55,751 nt of DNA from Akkermansia muciniphila (GCA_945860945.1 CAMASG010000005.1:1-55751), one strand, 5' to 3'. Counted from the first letter of the stretch, positions 37,458 through 47,110 are shown. The notes: generated by a model not told the origin, from the letters alone. Numbers and translations: made by a program.

Positions 37458-38494
37458 TGGATCTCACCGATCTCACGCGGGCGCCCGAGACCGACCCGCT
37501 GCCGATCTTCCGCCAGCGCGACGGCATTTACGCCACCGATCTGCTGGGTGCGGCGGTGGCGCATCTCGATTTCTTCACGTGGCTCGACAAAAATCCGTCT
37601 GACATCGCTACGATCTGCCGCGCGTTCAGTTTTCACCAACGGCCGGTGGACGTGATGCTCACGCTTTTCTGCGCGATGGGGCTTGTAGAGAAACGCGCCG
37701 GCGTGTTTCACGTTTCGGTATTGGCGCGCGAACATCTCGTTGCCGGTTCGCAATGGAATCTCGGGCCGTATTTCGGTTCGCTCAAGGAACGTCCAGTTTG
37801 CCGCGATTTCGTCACCATCCTGCGCACCGATAAACCCGCGAACTGGGGTAGTTACAAGGACGAGCGCGAGTGGGCGAAGGCGATGGAAGGCGAGGAGTTC
37901 GCGCGCGGCTTCACGGCGGCGATGGATTGCCGCGGCGTTTATCTCGGCCAAGGACTCGCGCGGCAGGTGGATTTGAGCGGCAGCCAACGACTGCTCGACA
38001 TCGGCGGAGGCTCGGGCATTTACGCCTGCGCGCTTGTGGCGCGGCACACGCATCTGCGCGCAGCGGTGCTGGAACGCGCGCCGGTGGACGCGATCGCGCG
38101 CGCGAAAATCGCCGAGCGCGGCCTGGCCGACCGCGTCGAGGTGGTGACAGGAGATTTCTTCGCCGGACCGTTGCCGGACGGGTTTGACGCCCATCTTTAC
38201 TCGAACGTGCTGCACGATTGGGATGCGCCGACGGTGCGATCTCTCCTCGCCAAATCGCACGCCGCGCTGCCGGTGGGCGGACGGTTGCTCATTCACGACA
38301 TGCATTTGAACGCGGAGAAAACCGGACCGCTGCCAGTCGCCAGTTACTCGGCCATTCTGATGGCCGTGACGGAAGGCCGCTGCTATTCAGTGGCTGAACT
38401 GGAGGCGTGGTTGCTGCAGGCCGGCTTCGCCGAAGTGACCTTTGCGTCGACGGCCGCGGACCGCAGCGTGATTGCGGCACGGAAAGCGCGTTGA
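37454..38494 (+). CDS. SAM-dependent O-methyltransferase with dimerisation domain
   Basis: LLDIGGGSG, GDFF, SNVLHDW; ATGA overlap with the upstream stop. Confidence 0.88.
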   Translation: MMDLTDLTRAPETDPLPIFRQRDGIYATDLLGAAVAHLDFFTWLDKNPSDIATICRAFSFHQRPVDVMLTLFCAMGLVEKRAGVFHVSVLAREHLVAGSQWNLGPYFGSLKERPVCRDFVTILRTDKPANWGSYKDEREWAKAMEGEEFARGFTAAMDCRGVYLGQGLARQVDLSGSQRLLDIGGGSGIYACALVARHTHLRAAVLERAPVDAIARAKIAERGLADRVEVVTGDFFAGPLPDGFDAHLYSNVLHDWDAPTVRSLLAKSHAALPVGGRLLIHDMHLNAEKTGPLPVASYSAILMAVTEGRCYSVAELEAWLLQAGFAEVTFASTAADRSVIAARKAR

Positions 38495-38576
38495 AGAAAC
38501 GTGCTGTTGTCGCTGAATATTTGATTGCGGTCGGGGTCGAACTGGGCGAGAAATAGGATGTAGCTTTTGGGTCGAT

Positions 38577-41500
38577 ATGATGCGCAGCAACCCAACGCGT
38601 TTTTCAGCCGGTTTGGGAGGTCTTATTGCTATGATGATTCGTTTGTTTCGCCACGGCTTGGCATTGGCCGCACTGTTCGCTCTGTTGAACGCGGCGCACT
38701 TCGCGCCGGTGGTTTTCGCGCAGCAGAATAATGACCCCGCCCTCGAGCTCTATTTCAGCGCCAACGGCCTCTACAATCGCAAGCTCTACGAATTGGCCGC
38801 GGGCGACTACAAAAGCTTCCTCACCAAACATCCTCGGCACGAGAAGGCGCCGCACGCGAAGCTCGGTTTGGCGTTGAGCCTCTTCAACCTCGGCCGTCAC
38901 GCCGAGGCCGAACCGGTGCTGGCCGACCTCGCGTCGAGCTCGAAGTCGCCCGAGCCGGAGCAGGTGCATCTCGTGTGGGGTCAGTCGCTGCTGATGCTGA
39001 ACAAAGCCGCGAAAGCGGAGGAAGCTTTCACGAAAGCGCTCAAGCAGGAGAAGGCTGTGCTGCGCGACAACGCGGTGGCCGGTCTCGTCGAGGCGCTTTT
39101 CCAGCAGCAGAAATGGAAAGAGGTCATCACTCGCGGCGATGAGCTGGCGAAGGGGAAGGCTGCCTACACGCCGCGCGCGAAGTTTCAGGGCGCCGTTGCC
39201 CGCTACGAGTTGAAGCAATACAAGGAAGCCGCTGGACTACTCGGCGAGCTGGTGACTGAGGCGAAAAACCTCCCCTTCGCGCAGCAGTCGATCTTCTTGC
39301 TCGCCGAATGCAAACGCGAGCTGGGCGACCTCGCGGGCGCGGAGACGCAGTATGATGCTACGCGCAAACTCGACGGACAGTTTACCGCTGACGCGCTCTT
39401 CCGACTCGGTTTCGTCCGGTTCCAGCAGAAGAAATTCGCTGCGGCTGCAGCCGACTTCGCCGAGTTGCGCGCGAAGCACAAGAATCATTCTTCCGCCAAG
39501 TCCGCTGCAATTTATCTCGGCCGCGCCCAGCTTGAGAACCGCGACTTCAAGTCCGCCGAGACCACGCTGGCGGAGCTCGCCGCTGAGCCCGCCGCCAGTG
39601 GGGACATCGCGCTTTGGCAGGCGCGCGCGTTCTCGCGTCAGCAGAAATACGCCGAGGCTTCGGACGTTCTCGGGAAGGCGGTGGTGCGTCACTCGAAAGA
39701 TCCGTTGCTGTCCGACCTACTCTTCGACCACGGCAACGCGTTGCTCGGTGCTGGGAAATTTGCCGATGCGGCCAAGTCCTTCGCGCGGATCACCGACGAG
39801 TTCCCCGAGTTCCCGCAAGCAATTGATGCGCTCCGGTTGCACGCGCTCTGCTTGCATCGCGCTGGACAGTTCGCCGCCAGCCACGCTCTTTGCAGCGAAT
39901 TTCTCGCGAAGAATGGCGATTCGCCCGCGACGGCCGAGATCGCCTTTCTTCAAGCGGAGAACCTTTTCTTCCAAGAGAAGTTCGACACGGCGCTGCCGGC
40001 TTATCGCAAGTTCATCGTCGCGCACGTCACCAGTCCGCAGCGTGCCGCCGCGCAACTCCGCGTGGGGCAGTCTCTCTATCAGCAGCAGAAATGGGCCGAT
40101 GCGGTGAAGGAGTTGGAGCCGCTCACCAAATCGAAGAAGACCGAGCCGCTCTTCGCGCAGGTGGAGTTCCTCCTCGGCGATTGCCTTTTCCAGCAGGAGA
40201 AATGGGCCGATGCGATCGGTGCGCTGAATCGTTTCGTGGCCTCGGAGCCGAAAGATCCGGACGCGGATACGGCGTTGCTCAAGATCGCTTTGGCGCACGA
40301 CCGGAATGGTGCGCGCGAGAAGTCCGCCGCCGCACTCGACCGTCTCGCGCGTGAACATCCGGCCAGCGCGCATCTGCCGCACGCGCTTGTCGAAATCGGC
40401 CGGTTGCGTCTGGACGCGAACGATCTCGTCGGCGCTCGCAAAGCGCTCTCGCAGGTTGCGTCCGCGATTGCTGCGCCCCGCACGGCACCGAGAGGTGCTC
40501 CTGAGCAAGGTTCGGGCGCGCGCGTGCTCGTGGGGTTGAATGGATCGAAGGCGCCGGCCACGCCCGCGGCTGCGGCGCAGTATTACCACGGCTGGGCGGA
40601 GTATTATCTCGCGTGGACCGCGCTCGGTGAGAAGAACGAGGACGAAGCGGTGAAGCAGTTCGGCATCGTGGCGGACAAGTTCGTCGGTCACTCGGCTGCG
40701 TCCGATGCGCGACTGCAGCTCGCCGTGCTTCTCGCGCGGCGGAATGACGCCGGTTCCGCCACCGCCGCGCAGGCCGCGCTCGCGAAGTTCATGAAGGAGA
40801 ATCCGAACGACGCGAAGATCGACCAAGCCGCGTTCCATCTCGGCAGCGTCTTCGCGAAGCAGCGCCAGTGGGCGCCGGCGCTCGAGCAATTCCACAAGGT
40901 CGCGTCGATGGAGAAATCCCCGCTGCGCGACCGCGCATTCTACGAAGCGGCGTGGGCGGAGAAGGGCGCGGGCCGTAACGCCGCTGCCGCGAAGGAATAC
41001 GAGGCGCTGCTCAGCAAGTTCGCGCAAAGCCCGCTGGCCGGTCCGGCTGCGTTCGAGTTGGCCGAGTTGGAATACGAGGCGAAGAACGTGGACGGCACCA
41101 TCAAGCGACTCACGCGTCTGCTCGCCGACACGAAGGACGCCGGCCTGCGCAGTCGCGCGCAGTATCGTCTTGCGTGGTGTCAGTTCGACAAAGGCGACTT
41201 CACCGCGGCCGCGAAATCTTACGAGACCGTGCTTAAGGACGCGCCGCCCGAGTTGATTGCCGTGGCTTCGTATCAAGCCGGTGAATCGCAACTCAAGCTC
41301 AAGGCGTACAAGGCCGCGCTCGCTCACTTCCAGAAATCACTCGCTGATGCTGGTGGCGCGGAGGTGAAAGAACAGGCGATGCTCCGCACCGGCGAGTGTC
41401 AGGCGTTGCTCACTCAGTGGGCCGACGCGGAGAAGACGTACGAGAGCTTCACCGAGAAGTTTCCGAAGCACGATCTCGTTCGCCGAGCGAAGCTCGGGCT

Positions 41501-41840
41501 CGGTTGGTCGCGCGAGAACCAGCAGAAGTTCACCGAGGCGCTCCCGCTTTACGAATCAGTAATCACCAGTGGCGAGCGCGATGATCTCGCCGCGCGCGCG
41601 CAGTTCCAGACGGGCGAATGTCTTTTCGCGCAGAAGAAAAACGACGACGCCATCCGCGCGTTTATCAAAGTTGAAATCGGTTACGGCTACCCCGAGTGGA
41701 GCGCGCGTGCGCTGCTGCGCATCGGCAACGTGCTCGAGCGAAAGGGCGACCGCCCCGGCGCGCTGGAGCGTTTCAAGGAAGTCGCACAACGCTATCCCGA
41801 CACCGACGCCGCGCAAATCGCGAAGGAGCGGCTGCGCTGA
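38577..41840 (+). CDS. Large secreted TPR-repeat protein with CpoB/YbgF-like C-terminus (start may be 38631)
   Basis: Signal peptide then TPR pairs throughout; ends ARALLRIGNVLE...EVAQRYPDTDAAQIAKERL. GGGAGG precedes ATG 38631. Confidence 0.85.
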   Translation: MMRSNPTRFSAGLGGLIAMMIRLFRHGLALAALFALLNAAHFAPVVFAQQNNDPALELYFSANGLYNRKLYELAAGDYKSFLTKHPRHEKAPHAKLGLALSLFNLGRHAEAEPVLADLASSSKSPEPEQVHLVWGQSLLMLNKAAKAEEAFTKALKQEKAVLRDNAVAGLVEALFQQQKWKEVITRGDELAKGKAAYTPRAKFQGAVARYELKQYKEAAGLLGELVTEAKNLPFAQQSIFLLAECKRELGDLAGAETQYDATRKLDGQFTADALFRLGFVRFQQKKFAAAAADFAELRAKHKNHSSAKSAAIYLGRAQLENRDFKSAETTLAELAAEPAASGDIALWQARAFSRQQKYAEASDVLGKAVVRHSKDPLLSDLLFDHGNALLGAGKFADAAKSFARITDEFPEFPQAIDALRLHALCLHRAGQFAASHALCSEFLAKNGDSPATAEIAFLQAENLFFQEKFDTALPAYRKFIVAHVTSPQRAAAQLRVGQSLYQQQKWADAVKELEPLTKSKKTEPLFAQVEFLLGDCLFQQEKWADAIGALNRFVASEPKDPDADTALLKIALAHDRNGAREKSAAALDRLAREHPASAHLPHALVEIGRLRLDANDLVGARKALSQVASAIAAPRTAPRGAPEQGSGARVLVGLNGSKAPATPAAAAQYYHGWAEYYLAWTALGEKNEDEAVKQFGIVADKFVGHSAASDARLQLAVLLARRNDAGSATAAQAALAKFMKENPNDAKIDQAAFHLGSVFAKQRQWAPALEQFHKVASMEKSPLRDRAFYEAAWAEKGAGRNAAAAKEYEALLSKFAQSPLAGPAAFELAELEYEAKNVDGTIKRLTRLLADTKDAGLRSRAQYRLAWCQFDKGDFTAAAKSYETVLKDAPPELIAVASYQAGESQLKLKAYKAALAHFQKSLADAGGAEVKEQAMLRTGECQALLTQWADAEKTYESFTEKFPKHDLVRRAKLGLGWSRENQQKFTEALPLYESVITSGERDDLAARAQFQTGECLFAQKKNDDAIRAFIKVEIGYGYPEWSARALLRIGNVLERKGDRPGALERFKEVAQRYPDTDAAQIAKERLR

Positions 41841-41848
41841 ATGATCTG

Positions 41849-44800
41849 ATGCCGACACGCCACAACTGCAATGTTCCGTCGCCGCGCCCCGCGCGGAAGG
41901 GACGTCGTTGGCTTGTGGCGCTCGGTTTCGTTGCGTGGGTTGGATTGCTTTCGAGTGCAGAGCCATCCGTTCCCGCCGCAGTTTCCGCCGCTCCACTCCC
42001 TTCCGTGGCGTCGGACAAGATCGAGGCCGTGCTGCACACGCTCGTGCAGTACAAGTGGTCCGTGCTCCTGCTGCTCCTCTCGCTGATCGGGCTCATCCAC
42101 ATCGCCCGCAAGCTTGCCACCGAGAGCGAACGGCGCAAGCTGAACATCATTCAGCGCTGCCTCATCGGCTCAATCATCCTCCATTTGTTGGCGGGCTTCT
42201 TCTTCACCGCGTGGGTGGTTTCAAACGCTGTGAAACGTTCCGTGATCGAAGTCTCCGCCGAGTCGAACCTCGTGCCGATTGATCTCGCGAGCCTCGACGG
42301 TCAGGGCGAAGGCGGTGGGGGCGAAGCCGACCCGCGTCTGTTGCAGGCGTTGCGCGAACAGGTTTCCAATCTACCCCGCGCGGCCGCGGGAATGTCCGTT
42401 GCCAGAGCCGCCGGACAATCGGGCGGCGGCGGTGGTTCGCCGATGCGCAACGGCAACGTGATGACCGGCGGCGCGACGGGTCGCACGGCGCCGTCAGCGT
42501 CGTTCACGGTCTCCGAGAGTTCTCCGACAGAGAACGGCCGATTGGAGACCGCGAGTTCCACCACGCTCGCTCCGCAGGCCGCGCAGATGAGCGGTTCACT
42601 CGAAGCCCGCGCCGACACGAGTGTGCCGCGTCCCGAGATGGTCCGTCCGTCGCTCGACCTCACCGCGCCGAGTCGGATGGCGGTGCAACAGGTCACGCCC
42701 GAGATGGCGCGGCCCGCGATGAACGTGCGCGTGCAGCGTCCCGGCACCTCGGCTTCGCGGATGGTGCAGGTCGCCACGGCGGAATCATCGGGCGCGACCG
42801 GCGAGTCCACCTCCGCATCGGCATCGCTCCCCGCAGCCAGTGCCGCTGGTGCGGCCAGCGCTTTGTCGGCGATGTCCGCGAACACCCCTTCCACCACCGG
42901 TGTGCAAATGGAATCGGCCCGGCCCGTGGCCGCCAGCGCATCTGGCCCGACGATGCAGAATCCTTCCAGCCGGATGGACACCGCGCGCGGCGAAGCGAAT
43001 GCCAGCGGCGCAACTTCCACGCGCGCCGAGATGAGCGCGAGCTCGCCCACGCGCGCGGCCACGGCACGCAGCGCGGCTGGTTCCGCCGTCGGCTCGTTCG
43101 GAGCGACGAGTGACAGCGCAACGCGGAGCGAGAGTTTGAGCGCAGCCAGTGCGGCCGGTGCGATGGCGGCAATGGCCGGCGGCAATGCCAGCGGCGCGGC
43201 ATCATCAGCGATGCAGATGGAAGCGGGCCGACTCGGCGGCAGCGCGACCGGTGCGACGTCGGGTGCAGGAATGGCCAGCGCCTCCAGTCGGATGGATGTC
43301 GCGCGCGCAGCGGGGAGCGCGGGCGCGAGTGGAAATAGTTCTGCCACGCCAGGCCGCGCGGCGATGGGCAACGGCGCTCTGGCCGGTGGCGCATCAGGTG
43401 CAGCGGGCGCAGCGCGCGGTTCTTCAGCGGTCGGTTCATTTGGCCCCGTGAGTAGCGGCAACAGCGGTGGCGGTGGTGAAGGTTTGGCGGCGGCGAATTC
43501 CGCCAGTTCACTTTCTTCATCCACCGGCAACGGTGCTGCTGGTGGCAGTGCCGCCGGCGGAATGCAAATGGAAGCCGGCCGACTCGGCGGTGGTGCGTCG
43601 GGCGCGCGATCGGGTTCGGGTCTTGCGGGCGCTTCAAGTCGCATGGATGTGTCGCGGTCGGGTTCGGGCAATGGCTCGAGCAACGGCGGTTCAACCGCGC
43701 CGGGTCGCGCGGCGATGGGCAACGGAGCATTGGCAGGCGGCCCCTCCGGTGCAGGGCAGGGCAGCGGATCTTCGGCAGTCGGCTCGTTCGGGCCTGTGAG
43801 CGGCGGCGGCGGTTCGGGCGGTGGTTTGGGTTCGGCGAGTTCTGCCGGTTCGCTTTCATCGATTGCCGGCGGCGGTTCTGCGAGTGGTAGTACCGGTGGC
43901 GGAATGCAAATGGAAGCAGGACGACTCGGCGGTGGTGCTGCGGACGCACGCTCAGGTTCGGGTCTTGCGGGCGCTTCAAGTCGGATGGATGTGTCGCGCT
44001 CGGGTTCGGGTAATGGGTCGGGTAACGGCGGTTCAACTCCGCCGGGACGGGCGGCGATGGGCAGTGGCACGGGGACTGGCGGCAAGAGCGGTGCGGGTCG
44101 CGGCACGGGTTCTTCGGCGGTAGGCGCGTTTGGTCCGGCGACCGGTGGTGGTTCGGGCGGTGGCGAAAGTTTGGGCGCGGCGGGAGCTTCGGGTGCGTTG
44201 GGTGGGACGCCTCAATTTGCGATGACCGGTGGCGGCGGTTTCCGGGCGGAGATGGCGTCTCCCGCCGCGGGCGCGGCCGGCAGAGGCTCAGACGTGGGAC
44301 GCGCCTCGAGCAAGGTGGGCGTGAGCCGCGCGAGTGGCGCTGGTAGTGGCGAAAGCGGCAGCGGTCCGGCGCGACTGGGCGGTCCGGGTGGAACCAGCGG
44401 TGGCGCGAGCAAGTTTGGTTCCTTCGCTGCAGCGCAGAAAGTGGAGTTCGGTTCCGGCACGAGCGATGGCGGCCGCGGTTTGGGCGGGGTGAATTTTGGA
44501 CAACCATCCGCAGCACCCAAGTTCGGCGAAGCGGATGTGAAGTTAGAGACGCGCCCGGCGAACATTGCCGCCACGCCGAAGCCGACGTCCGTTCCCGAAG
44601 CCCGTCCCTCTGCACCCATCGCGTCGATGAAGGCCGCACCGATTGTGACGAAAGTCGAACGGCCGGTGTCGTTGATCGCGAAGGCACCGATGGATTTGGC
44701 ACCGCTGCGCTCGGTGTTGCAGCCGTCAGCCAAGGTCGAGAGCGTTCAACTATCGCGTCCGTCGGAGCTGCCGACTTCTGCCGCGACGCGGTTGATGGAT

Positions 44801-45892
44801 ATGGCCGTGCCGGTGCGTCCGGCGGTCTCGTCTTTGATCGACACGAAGAACCCGCTCGCGCTGCGCTCGCCGGAGATGCGCGCGGGATTGCTCGAGCAAC
44901 TCGGCGGCAACGATGAGACGGAGGCGGCGGTGCGGCGGGCATTGGAATGGTTCAAGCGCACGCAGGAGCGCGACGGCCATTGGACGCGCGGCGGGCAGGG
45001 GCATCACTCGTCGGCGACGGCGCTGGCGATGCTCTGCTTCATGGGCTACGGCGCGAAGCACACCGAACCGGGGCCGTATCAAGAGACGCTTGAGCGCGCG
45101 ATGTCGTGGCTTTTGAAGCAGTCGAAGGCGGAGGGCGATGTGCGCGGCGACGGCGATTTGTACGATCAGGCGATCGTCACGATGGCGTTGGCCGAGGCGT
45201 TCAACCTCACGAAAGATCCACGACTGCAAGAGCCGGTGCGCAAAGCGGTGTCGTTCATCGTGACGGCGCAGAACAAAACAACCGGCGGCTGGCGTTACAA
45301 GCCGTGGGCGCGCGATCCGCAGGAGAAGGGCGATCTCTCGGTGACGGGCTGGCAAATCATGGCGCTGAAGAGCGCGTCGCTCGCGGGCGTGGAAGTGCCG
45401 AGTTCGGCGTTCACGGGCGCGGGGAAGTTTATCGAATCGCTCGGTCGCGGCCGGCATGGCGGGCTTTACGGCTATCGCTCGTCGGATCCGGAACCGAAGC
45501 CGACGATGACGGCGCAGGCGCTTTTCTCGCGGCTGCTGCTGGGGCAGGGAACGGGCGACGCGCGCACGGCGGAGACGCTCGTTTATATGCGCGAGCAATT
45601 GCCCAGCCTGCGCGAGGTGAATTATTACTACTGGTATTACGGCTGCCTCGCGCTTTATCAGCATCAGGGCGCGGTGTGGGAGGAATGGAACGGACGGATG
45701 CGGCCGATCTTCCTGAAGGCGCAGCGGCGCGACGGCCAACTCTCGGGAAGCTGGGACGCCGAGGGCGATCGCAAGGAAACCTACGGCCGCTTCATCACCA
45801 CCGCTCTCGCCACGCTTTCGCTCGAGGTCTATTATCGTTATCTGCCGCTCTACAAGCCGACGCTGACGGCTGCGAGCGAAGCGCAGAAGTAA
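41849..45892 (+). CDS. Membrane-anchored protein with Gly/Ser/Ala repeat linker and C-terminal prenyltransferase/squalene-cyclase-like barrel
   Basis: N-terminal hydrophobic helices including SIILH, long low-complexity region, QW-like motifs (QERDGHW, QNKTTGGW), C-terminal LEVYYRYLPLY. Confidence 0.82.
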   Translation: MPTRHNCNVPSPRPARKGRRWLVALGFVAWVGLLSSAEPSVPAAVSAAPLPSVASDKIEAVLHTLVQYKWSVLLLLLSLIGLIHIARKLATESERRKLNIIQRCLIGSIILHLLAGFFFTAWVVSNAVKRSVIEVSAESNLVPIDLASLDGQGEGGGGEADPRLLQALREQVSNLPRAAAGMSVARAAGQSGGGGGSPMRNGNVMTGGATGRTAPSASFTVSESSPTENGRLETASSTTLAPQAAQMSGSLEARADTSVPRPEMVRPSLDLTAPSRMAVQQVTPEMARPAMNVRVQRPGTSASRMVQVATAESSGATGESTSASASLPAASAAGAASALSAMSANTPSTTGVQMESARPVAASASGPTMQNPSSRMDTARGEANASGATSTRAEMSASSPTRAATARSAAGSAVGSFGATSDSATRSESLSAASAAGAMAAMAGGNASGAASSAMQMEAGRLGGSATGATSGAGMASASSRMDVARAAGSAGASGNSSATPGRAAMGNGALAGGASGAAGAARGSSAVGSFGPVSSGNSGGGGEGLAAANSASSLSSSTGNGAAGGSAAGGMQMEAGRLGGGASGARSGSGLAGASSRMDVSRSGSGNGSSNGGSTAPGRAAMGNGALAGGPSGAGQGSGSSAVGSFGPVSGGGGSGGGLGSASSAGSLSSIAGGGSASGSTGGGMQMEAGRLGGGAADARSGSGLAGASSRMDVSRSGSGNGSGNGGSTPPGRAAMGSGTGTGGKSGAGRGTGSSAVGAFGPATGGGSGGGESLGAAGASGALGGTPQFAMTGGGGFRAEMASPAAGAAGRGSDVGRASSKVGVSRASGAGSGESGSGPARLGGPGGTSGGASKFGSFAAAQKVEFGSGTSDGGRGLGGVNFGQPSAAPKFGEADVKLETRPANIAATPKPTSVPEARPSAPIASMKAAPIVTKVERPVSLIAKAPMDLAPLRSVLQPSAKVESVQLSRPSELPTSAATRLMDMAVPVRPAVSSLIDTKNPLALRSPEMRAGLLEQLGGNDETEAAVRRALEWFKRTQERDGHWTRGGQGHHSSATALAMLCFMGYGAKHTEPGPYQETLERAMSWLLKQSKAEGDVRGDGDLYDQAIVTMALAEAFNLTKDPRLQEPVRKAVSFIVTAQNKTTGGWRYKPWARDPQEKGDLSVTGWQIMALKSASLAGVEVPSSAFTGAGKFIESLGRGRHGGLYGYRSSDPEPKPTMTAQALFSRLLLGQGTGDARTAETLVYMREQLPSLREVNYYYWYYGCLALYQHQGAVWEEWNGRMRPIFLKAQRRDGQLSGSWDAEGDRKETYGRFITTALATLSLEVYYRYLPLYKPTLTAASEAQK
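42902..44240 (+). repeat. Four tandem ~310-350 nt coding repeats
   Basis: Units start at 42902, 43211, 43562 and 43904; each has QME, SSRMD, RAxM and GSAVG/SSAVG..FG motifs in the same order. Confidence 0.9.
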
Positions 45893-45928
45893 GCGAAGCG
45901 AACGGCTGCGGCCGGCGTCGTTGAATTT

Positions 45929-47110
45929 ATGCAATCCATGAAAACTCCCTGTTGGTTTCGCTTGGCGTTCGCGTTCTCACTGTCACTGGTGGTGCTCGCG
46001 CGCGGCGCGGATGAAGGGCTTGTTCCGCTTTTCAACGGCAAAGACCTCACCGGTTGGGTGCCGGTGAATGTCGCGCCCGGTACCTTCACCGTGCGCGATG
46101 GAATAATCATTTCTACCGGCAAACCGACCGGCGTGATGCGCACCGAACGGATGTACGAGAACTTCATCATCGAGTTGGAGTGGCGCCATCTGAAAAGCGG
46201 CGGCAACGCCGGCCTTTTCATCTGGGGCGATCCGATGACGGCGCGCGGCACGCCCTTCGCGCGCGGTATCGAGGTGCAGATTCTCGACAACGGCTACGCC
46301 GCTAAAGGCAAGAACGAGTGGTTCACCACGCACGGCGACATCTTTCCGATTCACGGCGCGACGATGACGCCCGCAGGCCGCGTGGCGAAGAGCGGTCGGC
46401 GCAGTTTCCCTGCGGAGGATCTTTCGAAAAGTGCGCCCGAGTGGAACCACTACCGCGTCGTCGCCAACAACGGCGAGGTTCGCCTCAGCGTGAATGGTAA
46501 AGAAGTGACGGTCGGCAAGGAGAGTTCGCCGCGCAAAGGTTATCTCTGTCTCGAAAGCGAAGGGAGCGAGTGCCACTTCCGAAACATCCGCATCAAAGAG
46601 TTGCCCTCCTCGAATCCATCGCCCGAGCAGACCGCGAAGTTGGCGGAGGGTTTTATCACGCTTTACACCGGCGTGGATCTCGCCGGTTGGCGTGCGGATG
46701 CCGCCGCGAAGGAGCACTGGCGCGCGAGTGATTGGCGGCTCGAGTGCGATGCGAAGGCCGGCACGCCGCCGCTCACGACCGAGAAGGAGTTCGGCGATTT
46801 CGTGCTGATTCTGGATTGGCTCTCTTCCGCTAAACCGGATCCGGCGAAGCCCGCCGACGTGGGCGAGATTGCCCTGCTTGGTTCGTTGCCCAACGGATTG
46901 GCGCTCGTGAAATTGGATCGCGCGCAGGCCGGCACCTGGCATCGTCTGCAGATCACACGTCGCGGCGATGAACTGACTGTGGAGCAGGATGGCAAGCCCA
47001 CCGGCGAGAAGCGGCGCGTGGCCGGTCTGCCGAAGCGGGGTTCGATTGAGCTGCGCAGTGCGGGCGAGCCAATCGTCTTCTCCAATATTTTTCTGCGCGA
47101 GTTGAAGTGA
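45929..47110 (+). CDS. DUF1080 (3-keto-disaccharide hydrolase-like) protein, two domains, second degenerate
   Basis: LFNGKDLTGW, EVQILD, EWNHY, FRNIRIKEL; second copy LYTGVDLAGW...FSNIFLREL. Confidence 0.88.
   Translation: MQSMKTPCWFRLAFAFSLSLVVLARGADEGLVPLFNGKDLTGWVPVNVAPGTFTVRDGIIISTGKPTGVMRTERMYENFIIELEWRHLKSGGNAGLFIWGDPMTARGTPFARGIEVQILDNGYAAKGKNEWFTTHGDIFPIHGATMTPAGRVAKSGRRSFPAEDLSKSAPEWNHYRVVANNGEVRLSVNGKEVTVGKESSPRKGYLCLESEGSECHFRNIRIKELPSSNPSPEQTAKLAEGFITLYTGVDLAGWRADAAAKEHWRASDWRLECDAKAGTPPLTTEKEFGDFVLILDWLSSAKPDPAKPADVGEIALLGSLPNGLALVKLDRAQAGTWHRLQITRRGDELTVEQDGKPTGEKRRVAGLPKRGSIELRSAGEPIVFSNIFLRELK

Follow-up and report, generated by a model that had tools for sequence, protein, structure and literature searches.

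The stretch analysed here, called the window throughout, is a DNA segment of 55,751 nucleotides deposited under Akkermansia muciniphila (GCA_945860945.1, CAMASG010000005.1:1-55751); it is contig C5 of a 131-contig assembly of 2.63 Mb with a completeness of 94.2%. We examined a pair of adjacent genes, both on the plus strand like every feature of the pair located below. Gene 1 (38577-41840) encodes an exported protein of 1087 residues built as an array of tetratricopeptide repeats (TPR) of the YbgF/CpoB type, and gene 2 (41849-45892) encodes a TonB/TolA-like arm of 1347 residues with a toroid head, as identified by homologue search and alignment. ExbB/TolQ-type 5:2 proton motors drive nutrient import (Ton), stabilisation of the outer membrane at division (Tol-Pal) and gliding. 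Comparison with relatives makes it probable that gene 2 is a member of a family of periplasmic TonB/TolA-like arms, widespread in the Planctomycetes-Verrucomicrobia-Chlamydiae (PVC) group, whose toroid derives from a terpene cyclase and is non-catalytic, that gene 1 is its constant partner, and that the ancestral module consisted of the TPR gene, exbB, exbD and the arm, being motor-less here. A preliminary description had already read the pair as a candidate envelope machine, and this reading is supported by comparative inference, namely by a conserved Ser/His helix and by the TPR-exbB-exbD-arm synteny.

The gene pair, its membrane anchor and its linker

The stop codon of gene 1 (41838-41840) and the ATG of gene 2 (41849) are separated by 8 nt (41841-41848), as previously described, and it is at this site that relatives hold exbB-exbD. 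A DNA contig from another study (X2, record 27) covers 40343-45348; since it crosses this region, the direct junction of gene 1 and gene 2 is not an assembly artefact. The start assigned mechanically to the second open reading frame (ORF), GTG 41696, overlaps gene 1 and was rejected because homologues start at the ATG. The locus is also covered, and the junction crossed, by contigs derived from RNA libraries; X12 and X13 belong to one study and X17 to a second. This is consistent with transcription but short of proof, DNA carry-over being possible. The shift of RNA-library depth near 38570 and the empty bins in X17 derive from contigs, and show neither a transcript start nor an absence of transcript. 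A scan of 38200-46300 for promoters and terminators returned 1 promoter-like and 12 terminator-like sites, not above shuffled sequences.

The N-terminus of the gene 1 product resembles a signal peptide when the translation is read by eye (residues ~19-48; 38631-38720; …MMIRLFRHGLALAALFALLNAAHFAPVVFA/QQ) and is devoid of a lipobox Cys. The protein matches 21 TPR-type Pfam families, and full-length homologues lie 5' of the arm gene in relatives. Profile TIGR02795 (tol_pal_ybgF) scores 281 bits against it, for a cut-off of 90.1, over 10 stretches, with TPR along the rest of the protein. Since the best of these stretches, also the last, covers residues 982-1086 (41520-41834), gene 1 ends like YbgF/CpoB, in keeping with the earlier account of ~1070 residues of exported TPRs with such an end. 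Gene 1 is not CpoB itself: the CpoB equivalog NF008068 gives 66.5 bits for a cut-off of 383, and the coiled-coil TolA_bind_tri domain (PF16331) is absent among its Pfam matches. With 1087 residues against ~260, it also is about four times the size of CpoB. The canonical tolQ-tolR-tolA-tolB-pal cluster of the genome (C87:1992-7831; L118) has no cpoB/ybgF gene 3' of pal, where tatA-like and tatC genes are found. Gene 1 is the sole carrier of YbgF-type TPR modules among the proteins examined, no genome-wide search for the family having been made.

A Ser-x3-His motif marks the helices by which TonB and TolA couple to ExbBD and TolQR, and TolA is bound by CpoB. The gene 2 product begins with a basic N-terminus followed by a signal-like or first membrane segment (residues ~20-36; 41906-41956) and by a periplasmic stub of ~32 residues; in relatives, the place of this stub is held by PD40 repeats and sometimes by a toroid. 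Next comes a membrane hairpin. Its helix 1 (residues ~69-87; 42053-42109) carries the nearly invariant W70 and L79, and a short basic cytoplasmic loop (residues 88-103; 42110-42157; KLATESERRKLNIIQR), with nearly invariant R95, leads to helix 2 (residues ~104-127; 42158-42229). The SIILH motif reported at ~42170-42184 is found in this second helix as S108-I-I-L-H112, with S108 encoded at 42170-42172 and H112 at 42182-42184. The following juxtamembrane segment (residues 128-175; 42230-42373) is conserved in the homologue consensus, L149 being nearly invariant, and constitutes a candidate "motor box" by analogy with the main text of PMC12204202.

The helix is well conserved. The preliminary description had made its reading depend on conservation of the His; indeed, H112 is invariant in all 16 aligned homologues, at identities down to 27%, and S108, W70, L79, R95 and W122 are conserved at 90% or more in the same alignment. 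With a loose pattern ([ST]-x3-H in a hydrophobic stretch following a basic residue), such a helix was detected in 114 of 120 family proteins; the six misses are three N-terminally truncated records, two shorter proteins of another build and one protein (P0066) having SLGLH. The family motif can be written [RK]-C-L-x-[GA]-S-x3-H-x-L-x-L-x-L-L-S-x-W.

The loop ahead of the S-x3-H helix is basic and is thus predicted to be cytoplasmic, so that the linker and toroid would be periplasmic. The positive-inside rule and the position of PD40 both give this second helix of the hairpin an N-in/C-out orientation. TolB-type PD40 repeats are present in 103 of the 120 best homologues, as counted among the matches listed, and the architectures examined run from the N-terminal anchor through PD40, in some cases with a first toroid, to the hairpin, the linker and the toroid. 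The position of PD40 before the hairpin fixes that side as periplasmic and, by this sequence-based topology, the barrel is predicted to be periplasmic as well, whereas a cytoplasmic barrel had been named in advance as an outcome contrary to the envelope-machine reading. PD40 is missing from the window protein and four close relatives, and also from some relatives that keep the motor, for instance L040 (772 aa).

The linker (42374-44884) is rich in Gly, Ala and Ser and presumably disordered, as judged from its composition. Taken over residues ~128-1000, the region contains 19.8% G, 18.9% A and 16.9% S; its ~870 residues compare well with the ~900 residues of low complexity first reported. Four repeats of ~100-117 residues, each with QME…SSRMD…AVGSFG, occupy 42905-44248, and the last two were detected by TRF (43491-44163, period 342). 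The linkers of homologues, very different in composition, have in common short hydrophobic-x-M-E-x-x-[RP]-[PL] motifs, which in the window head the four repeats. The dipeptide ME was observed 197 times in 76 linkers for 74.8 expected, a count on related sequences that serves as a lead rather than as a statistic. These ME-type motifs could be docking peptides for the TPR array or for ExbD.

The toroid head

The C-terminal domain of the arm (residues ~1013-1331; 44885-45841) was initially described as ~320 residues with QW-like motifs. Three Q-x(2-5)-G-x-W motifs were found, at residues 1039, 1141 and 1297, and the domain is assigned to the (alpha/alpha)6 toroid fold by an AlphaFold2 model, by structural alignment with VIA-align and by profile comparison with the PDB. 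The AlphaFold2 model, obtained from a 43-sequence alignment, contains ~14 helices and is of high confidence (pLDDT 90.2, pTM 0.90). Pfam matches the toroid only weakly (PF13243, 1.1e-6). Foldseek retrieved many (alpha/alpha)6 barrels at TM 0.5-0.6, including AprG, single-domain cyclases, GH76 and the complement thioester domain, a ranking that is ambiguous alone. The top match with VIA-align is squalene-hopene cyclase 2sqc_A (Z 27.2, rmsd 2.9 Å, 285 residues aligned, 20% identity), followed by single-domain cyclases and drimenyl diphosphate synthase at Z 24-26 and then by cellobiose 2-epimerases, AprG and GH76 mannanases at Z 22-24, squalene-hopene cyclase being ~3 Z units over the non-terpenoid barrels. 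The family profile likewise retrieved squalene-hopene cyclase from the PDB through repeat-level matches (E 3.4e-22), and weakly insect thioester proteins and pectate lyase.

Enzymes are thus the best structural neighbours of the toroid: class II terpene cyclases lead at Z 24-27, and the epimerase, mannanase and AprG barrels come next at Z 22-24. The domain also carries invariant acidic and many invariant aromatic residues. The head could be an enzyme, reaching over the periplasm on its long tether, which acts on an isoprenoid or a glycan; the module would then position a catalyst instead of passing force on to a bound ligand. We consider this improbable. Indeed, D.D[DE] occurs in 3 of 43 toroid sequences, at unconserved places, and no conserved DxDD is found, which argues against the ordinary cyclase activity that would contradict the preliminary description. 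The head is a single toroid and not the beta-gamma pair of squalene-hopene cyclase. No curated enzyme family reached its cut-off, the cyclase families TIGR01507 and TIGR01787 giving 30.2 bits for 431.1 and 26 bits for 322.7, respectively. Furthermore, non-catalytic toroids are matched too, such as the thioester domains of complement and alpha-2-macroglobulin.

Rather than a conserved DxDD, the window protein has G-D-L-S-V-T-G-W (45329-45352), in which D, S, G and W are invariant in 40 of 40 orthologue rows, the family form being G-D-[TL]-S-x-x-G-W. Its DLSVT begins at 45332, exactly where it was first noted, with D1162. When aligned by eye, D-L-S-V appears to stand at the D-V-D-D position of squalene-hopene cyclase, residues 374-377 of which are not covered by the tool's profile alignment. 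Many aromatic residues of the toroid are invariant, and the C-terminal tail L-E-V-Y-Y-R-Y-L-P-L-Y (45821-45853) is near-invariant in the homologue alignment, a tail that doubled as the search pattern for relatives. The conserved aromatics and tail together suggest a binding pocket or an interface. Co-folding of the toroid, limited to residues 430-1087 of the gene 1 product and leaving the linker aside, gave a score of 0.00, which counts neither for nor against binding.

The genome also encodes secreted paralogues of the toroid. Two of ~345 residues (C24:21758-22807 and C25:26051-27079; L114 and L115) are 31-33% identical to the head, and each lies 3' of a gene for a ~1,000-residue protein without Pfam match, in clusters that both include DUF4175-like, weakly VWA_CoxE-like and PA14 proteins. 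A further secreted paralogue, at C51:1673-2932, is 46% identical; in the tree it is placed among the arm heads of Verrucomicrobiota.

The four-gene module of relatives and the motor-less copy

When one genome per species was scanned with a sequence pattern, 604 relatives were found in 623 candidate stretches. Seventy-six loci were kept and 74 analysed, L088 and L094 being left out with a match in no single open frame. The recurrent order is a gene-1-like TPR gene (median 1060 aa), exbB, exbD in one to three copies, and the arm. Where at least 6 kb of upstream sequence was available (50 loci), ExbB was found in 45, ExbD in 47 and TPR in 43; with at least 1.5 kb upstream (59 loci), the counts are 49, 52 and 50. 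Pfam confirmed PF01618 and PF02472 in 12 of 12 sampled loci. Unbiased clustering of 871 ORFs from the loci recovered the same components (TPR in 47 loci, ExbB in 38, ExbD in 38), the next cluster reaching 10 loci, and no further conserved neighbour appeared among the clustered ORFs. The preliminary description would have been refuted by homologues that never co-occur with TPR or exbBD genes; the arm's homologues co-occur with both, in the order TPR, exbB, exbD, arm.

This family of toroid-headed arms spans Verrucomicrobiota, Kiritimatiellota and Planctomycetota, and its organization varies. Akkermansiaceae-type loci encode the PD40-plus-toroid part on its own, in a gene of ~800 codons between exbD and the arm. 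In the same phylum, proteins of ~500 residues with a GS-x3-H helix and a toroid lie directly 3' of exbB-exbD in at least 7 loci, as counted by a short-form parse of L009-L037 on the plus strand, about a dozen minus-strand loci being outside the count. No exbBD separates the TPR gene from the arm in the window, in L038 and in four Roseibacillus loci with arms of ~1,900 residues (L057, L061, L066, L067). The Roseibacillus metagenome-assembled genome (MAG) SP242 has a motor-less pair on one contig (L067) and a complete module on another (L050).

The motor seems to have been inherited together with the arm. Indeed, module-linked ExbB and ExbD are 43-60% identical across classes (one close pair 79-85%), as compared among five loci of Verrucomicrobiota and Kiritimatiellota (L039, L040, L042, L044, L058), and in a FastTree ExbB tree the module-linked genes form a single clade that follows taxonomy. 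We also considered independent losses of exbBD here and in Roseibacillus. The tree needs two changes; since its well-supported branches force only one, separate losses are not shown and this proposal was dropped. One Verrucomicrobiota locus has an insertion that sets the TPR gene apart from exbB, namely a serpin gene (L040:6234-7703; PF00079, E 5e-89). Complete modules were also observed in L068, L083 and L100 (also L081), whose contigs come from MAGs assigned to Anaerolineales (Chloroflexota); in the toroid tree these group in a clade of their own. Either mis-binning or a transfer beyond the PVC group would account for them.

Neither exbB nor exbD was found in the window, where 25.9-55.2 kb was scanned, in agreement with the earlier account, and a genome-wide search located all such genes elsewhere. 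The ExbB/TolQ genes of the genome are exactly three in number, as are its ExbD/TolR genes, and they lie in the clusters tolQ-tolR-tolA-tolB-pal (C87), tonB-tonB-exbB-exbD (C23) and exbB-exbD-tonB-like (C6). A dedicated motor was thus not found by these sequence searches; its absence is not proven, because ~6% of the genome is unassembled. In the C6 cluster (C6:18929-20786; L120), exbB-exbD is followed by a gene for a 255-residue protein with a weak TonB_C match and a membrane helix without Ser-x3-His, and its exbB is the genome's closest to module-linked ExbB (34%), yet outside their clade.

The two genes are nevertheless maintained. Both frames are intact, and the dN/dS values relative to the Pedosphaera locus L038 are 0.11 for gene 1 and, within gene 2, 0.42 for residues 1-60, 0.19 for the hairpin (residues 61-135), 0.16 for the linker and 0.07 for the toroid. 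By these ratios, both genes are under purifying selection, with no decay.

Locus L038 belongs to the nearest named relative of the window, a Pedosphaera sp. MAG (Verrucomicrobiota); it is collinear with 34960-55751, and its gene 2 product is 84% identical over the full length. The host of the window is a freshwater verrucomicrobium of a Pedosphaera-like lineage. Genes near the pair encode PSCyt/DUF1553 and DUF1501 proteins, an O-methyltransferase, a 3-keto-disaccharide hydrolase and others, which are usual for PVC bacteria and show no conserved linkage to the pair. The 3-keto-disaccharide hydrolase gene (DUF1080-type; 45929-47110), immediately 3' of gene 2, has the same placement in L038 and L056 (47% identical) and not in other loci. 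Within the toroid-coding region, a tract of ~750 bp (44860-45600) is 99-99.7% identical to L038, against 74-94% in the rest of a 15-kb alignment. Synonymous divergence is ~zero in this tract, and contigs from the DNA run break at 45319-45379, which points either to lineages that recombined recently or to an assembly that is chimeric or strain-collapsed.

A Tol-like arm and its possible motor

Several observations weigh against a motor-coupled arm with a non-catalytic head. The full SHLS motif of TonB and TolA consists of S, H at +4, L at +11 and S at +15, with an essential His. It is incomplete here: the window protein has F at +11, T at +12 and V at +15, and family members have L at +11 in 58 of 99 cases but their last Ser at +12 (69 of 99), not at +15. 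A hidden Markov model of the S-x3-H helix, run against the 23,183 six-frame ORFs of the genome, retrieved the helix of its own TolA as fourth match, at a non-significant E of 0.32. The anchor, a two-helix hairpin plus N-terminal segment, is unlike the single pass of TonB and TolA. The three ExbB/TolQ proteins of the genome are only 26-34% identical to module-linked ExbB and fall outside their clade, and each of the three motors already neighbours its own TolA or TonB. Finally, E1116, D1123 and D1162 of the toroid are invariant, making an enzymatic role of the head possible.

In view of the profile result, homology to the TolA/TonB helix is argued from motif and context only: the helix is TonB/TolA-like by its motif, a homology that sequence statistics do not prove. 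The S-x3-H could have arisen by coincidence in the hydrophobic helix of an ordinary membrane-anchored periplasmic protein, linked to exbBD through some other shared function. Such a coincidence would agree with the lack of a significant match between the helix profile and the genome's own TolA/TonB helices, with the hairpin and with a C-terminal domain unrelated to TonB_C. We judge it very improbable, as an invariant His within a membrane helix is unlikely to be kept by chance across phyla. The arm also lies directly 3' of exbD in 47 of 50 loci, which is the slot of TonB/TolA in the genome's own three motor clusters.

The motor raises a separate question. With no motor at the locus, and with three resident motors that have their own partners and lie outside the module clade, energisation is unproven in this genome. 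Since the motor genes are missing and the resident motors are taken, the arm either borrows one of them or acts as a passive tether. As a tether or scaffold, which would have lost motor and propeller, it would only anchor the toroid and the TPR array, its Ser/His helix being inherited and unused for coupling. This fits the lack of module-type exbBD in a 94%-complete assembly, the missing PD40 module, the small genome (2.63 Mb) and the equally reduced layout of the closest relative, L038. Several data speak against it and lead us to hold it rather unlikely: the five close homologues, with N-terminal 190 residues that differ by up to 28%, all retain S108 and H112; the dN/dS of the hairpin is 0.19; and the SP242 pair of loci (L050, L067) demonstrates that a copy lacking its motor can exist beside a motor in trans. 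Because the docking motif is kept and at least one Roseibacillus MAG has a motor-less copy beside the complete module, we favour motor sharing over a passive tether. That the arm of this genome borrows one of its three motors, either TolQR or one of two ExbBD, is a reasonable possibility, to which we nonetheless assign slightly less than an even chance.

Reading the arm as a motor-coupled transducer, we can sketch how it would operate by reference to Ton and Tol. The His-bearing helix would dock on the rim of an ExbB/TolQ pentamer, and proton flow through ExbD/TolR would pull the linker. The toroid would hold a ligand of the outer envelope, be it a protein, a glycan or an isoprenoid lipid, and the head would pass force to its outer-envelope partner or be released from it. 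The TPR array, for its part, may bind and organise the arm, as CpoB does TolA.

As in Tol-Pal and Ton, the family combines a Ser-x3-His helix, a presumably periplasm-spanning linker and, in relatives, an arm gene after exbD; CpoB-type TPR modules and TolB-type PD40 repeats complete the likeness. The differences are equally clear. Unlike TonB and TolA, gene 2 has no TonB_C or TolA domain III (PF03544, PF13103 and PF06519 searched with Pfam and NCBIfam), whereas the genome's own TolA and TonB do match, and the arm genes of the window and L038 are not linked to exbB-exbD or tolQ-tolR, as those of relatives are. Unlike Tol-Pal, the module has no Pal-like gene according to the clustering of locus ORFs, and the canonical tolQ-tolR-tolA-tolB-pal is separate, on C87. 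Gene 1 differs from CpoB also by having no coiled-coil domain. Similarly, the head shares with squalene-hopene cyclase its best fold match, a repeat-level profile similarity and the three QW-like motifs; it differs from it as a single toroid, without the DxDD acid, predicted to be periplasmic on a tether and far under curated cut-offs.

Motor partners with non-TonB heads have, to our knowledge, been proposed only in 2025. The main text of PMC12204202 (Mol Biol Evol 2025), which quotes the SHLS motif definition, proposes motor-driven force transducers with an SHLS helix and a vWA head in PVC and other bacteria, encoded in PVC 3' of TPR-tolQ-tolR-tolR. As there described, these resemble our family in having a Ser/His docking helix, a disordered linker and a head unrelated to TonB/TolA, with genes 3' of TPR and tolQ/tolR-like genes. 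On the other hand, compared with the transducers in that main text, the arm head is an (alpha/alpha)6 toroid, with no vWA family match in gene 2; the anchor is a hairpin, often with a PD40 propeller ahead; the linker has ~870 residues versus ~100; and exbD is usually single instead of forming a heterologous pair, the motor being absent in the window genome. None of the words toroid, prenyl, terpen and hopene appears in the main text of PMC12204202, supplements aside. No description of a toroid-headed TonB-like protein was found in the full-text literature, subscription journals and the PMC12204202 supplements lying outside its coverage. New here are the recognition of the TPR gene as the constant fourth member of the module, the architecture of hairpin and PD40 and the co-inherited motor clade, together with a genome that has no module motor in its assembly and yet keeps both genes under selection.

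The family adds a different kind of motor-partner head, a toroid of terpene-cyclase ancestry. Its four-gene module is fixed, the TPR protein in it is giant and CpoB-like, and a TolB-like propeller is often present. The parts list, which is CpoB-like, TolQR-like, TolA-like and TolB-like, suggests Tol-like envelope maintenance rather than import; this function is a guess by analogy. More speculatively, the module could be a second Tol-like machine of PVC bacteria. It would combine a TolQR-like motor with a CpoB-like array and with a TolA-like arm to which a TolB-like propeller is fused, its ring would grip a lipid of the outer envelope (for instance a hopanoid or a polyprenyl carrier) or a glycan, and the arm of the present genome would plug into Tol/Ton motors; we regard this full scheme as tentative and, taken whole, doubtful. 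The envelope biology of the phyla that carry the family is poorly understood. The motor-less copy of the window raises the question of whether such arms can share motors and, if the head does bind a lipid or a glycan, the family would point to a new energised process of the envelope.

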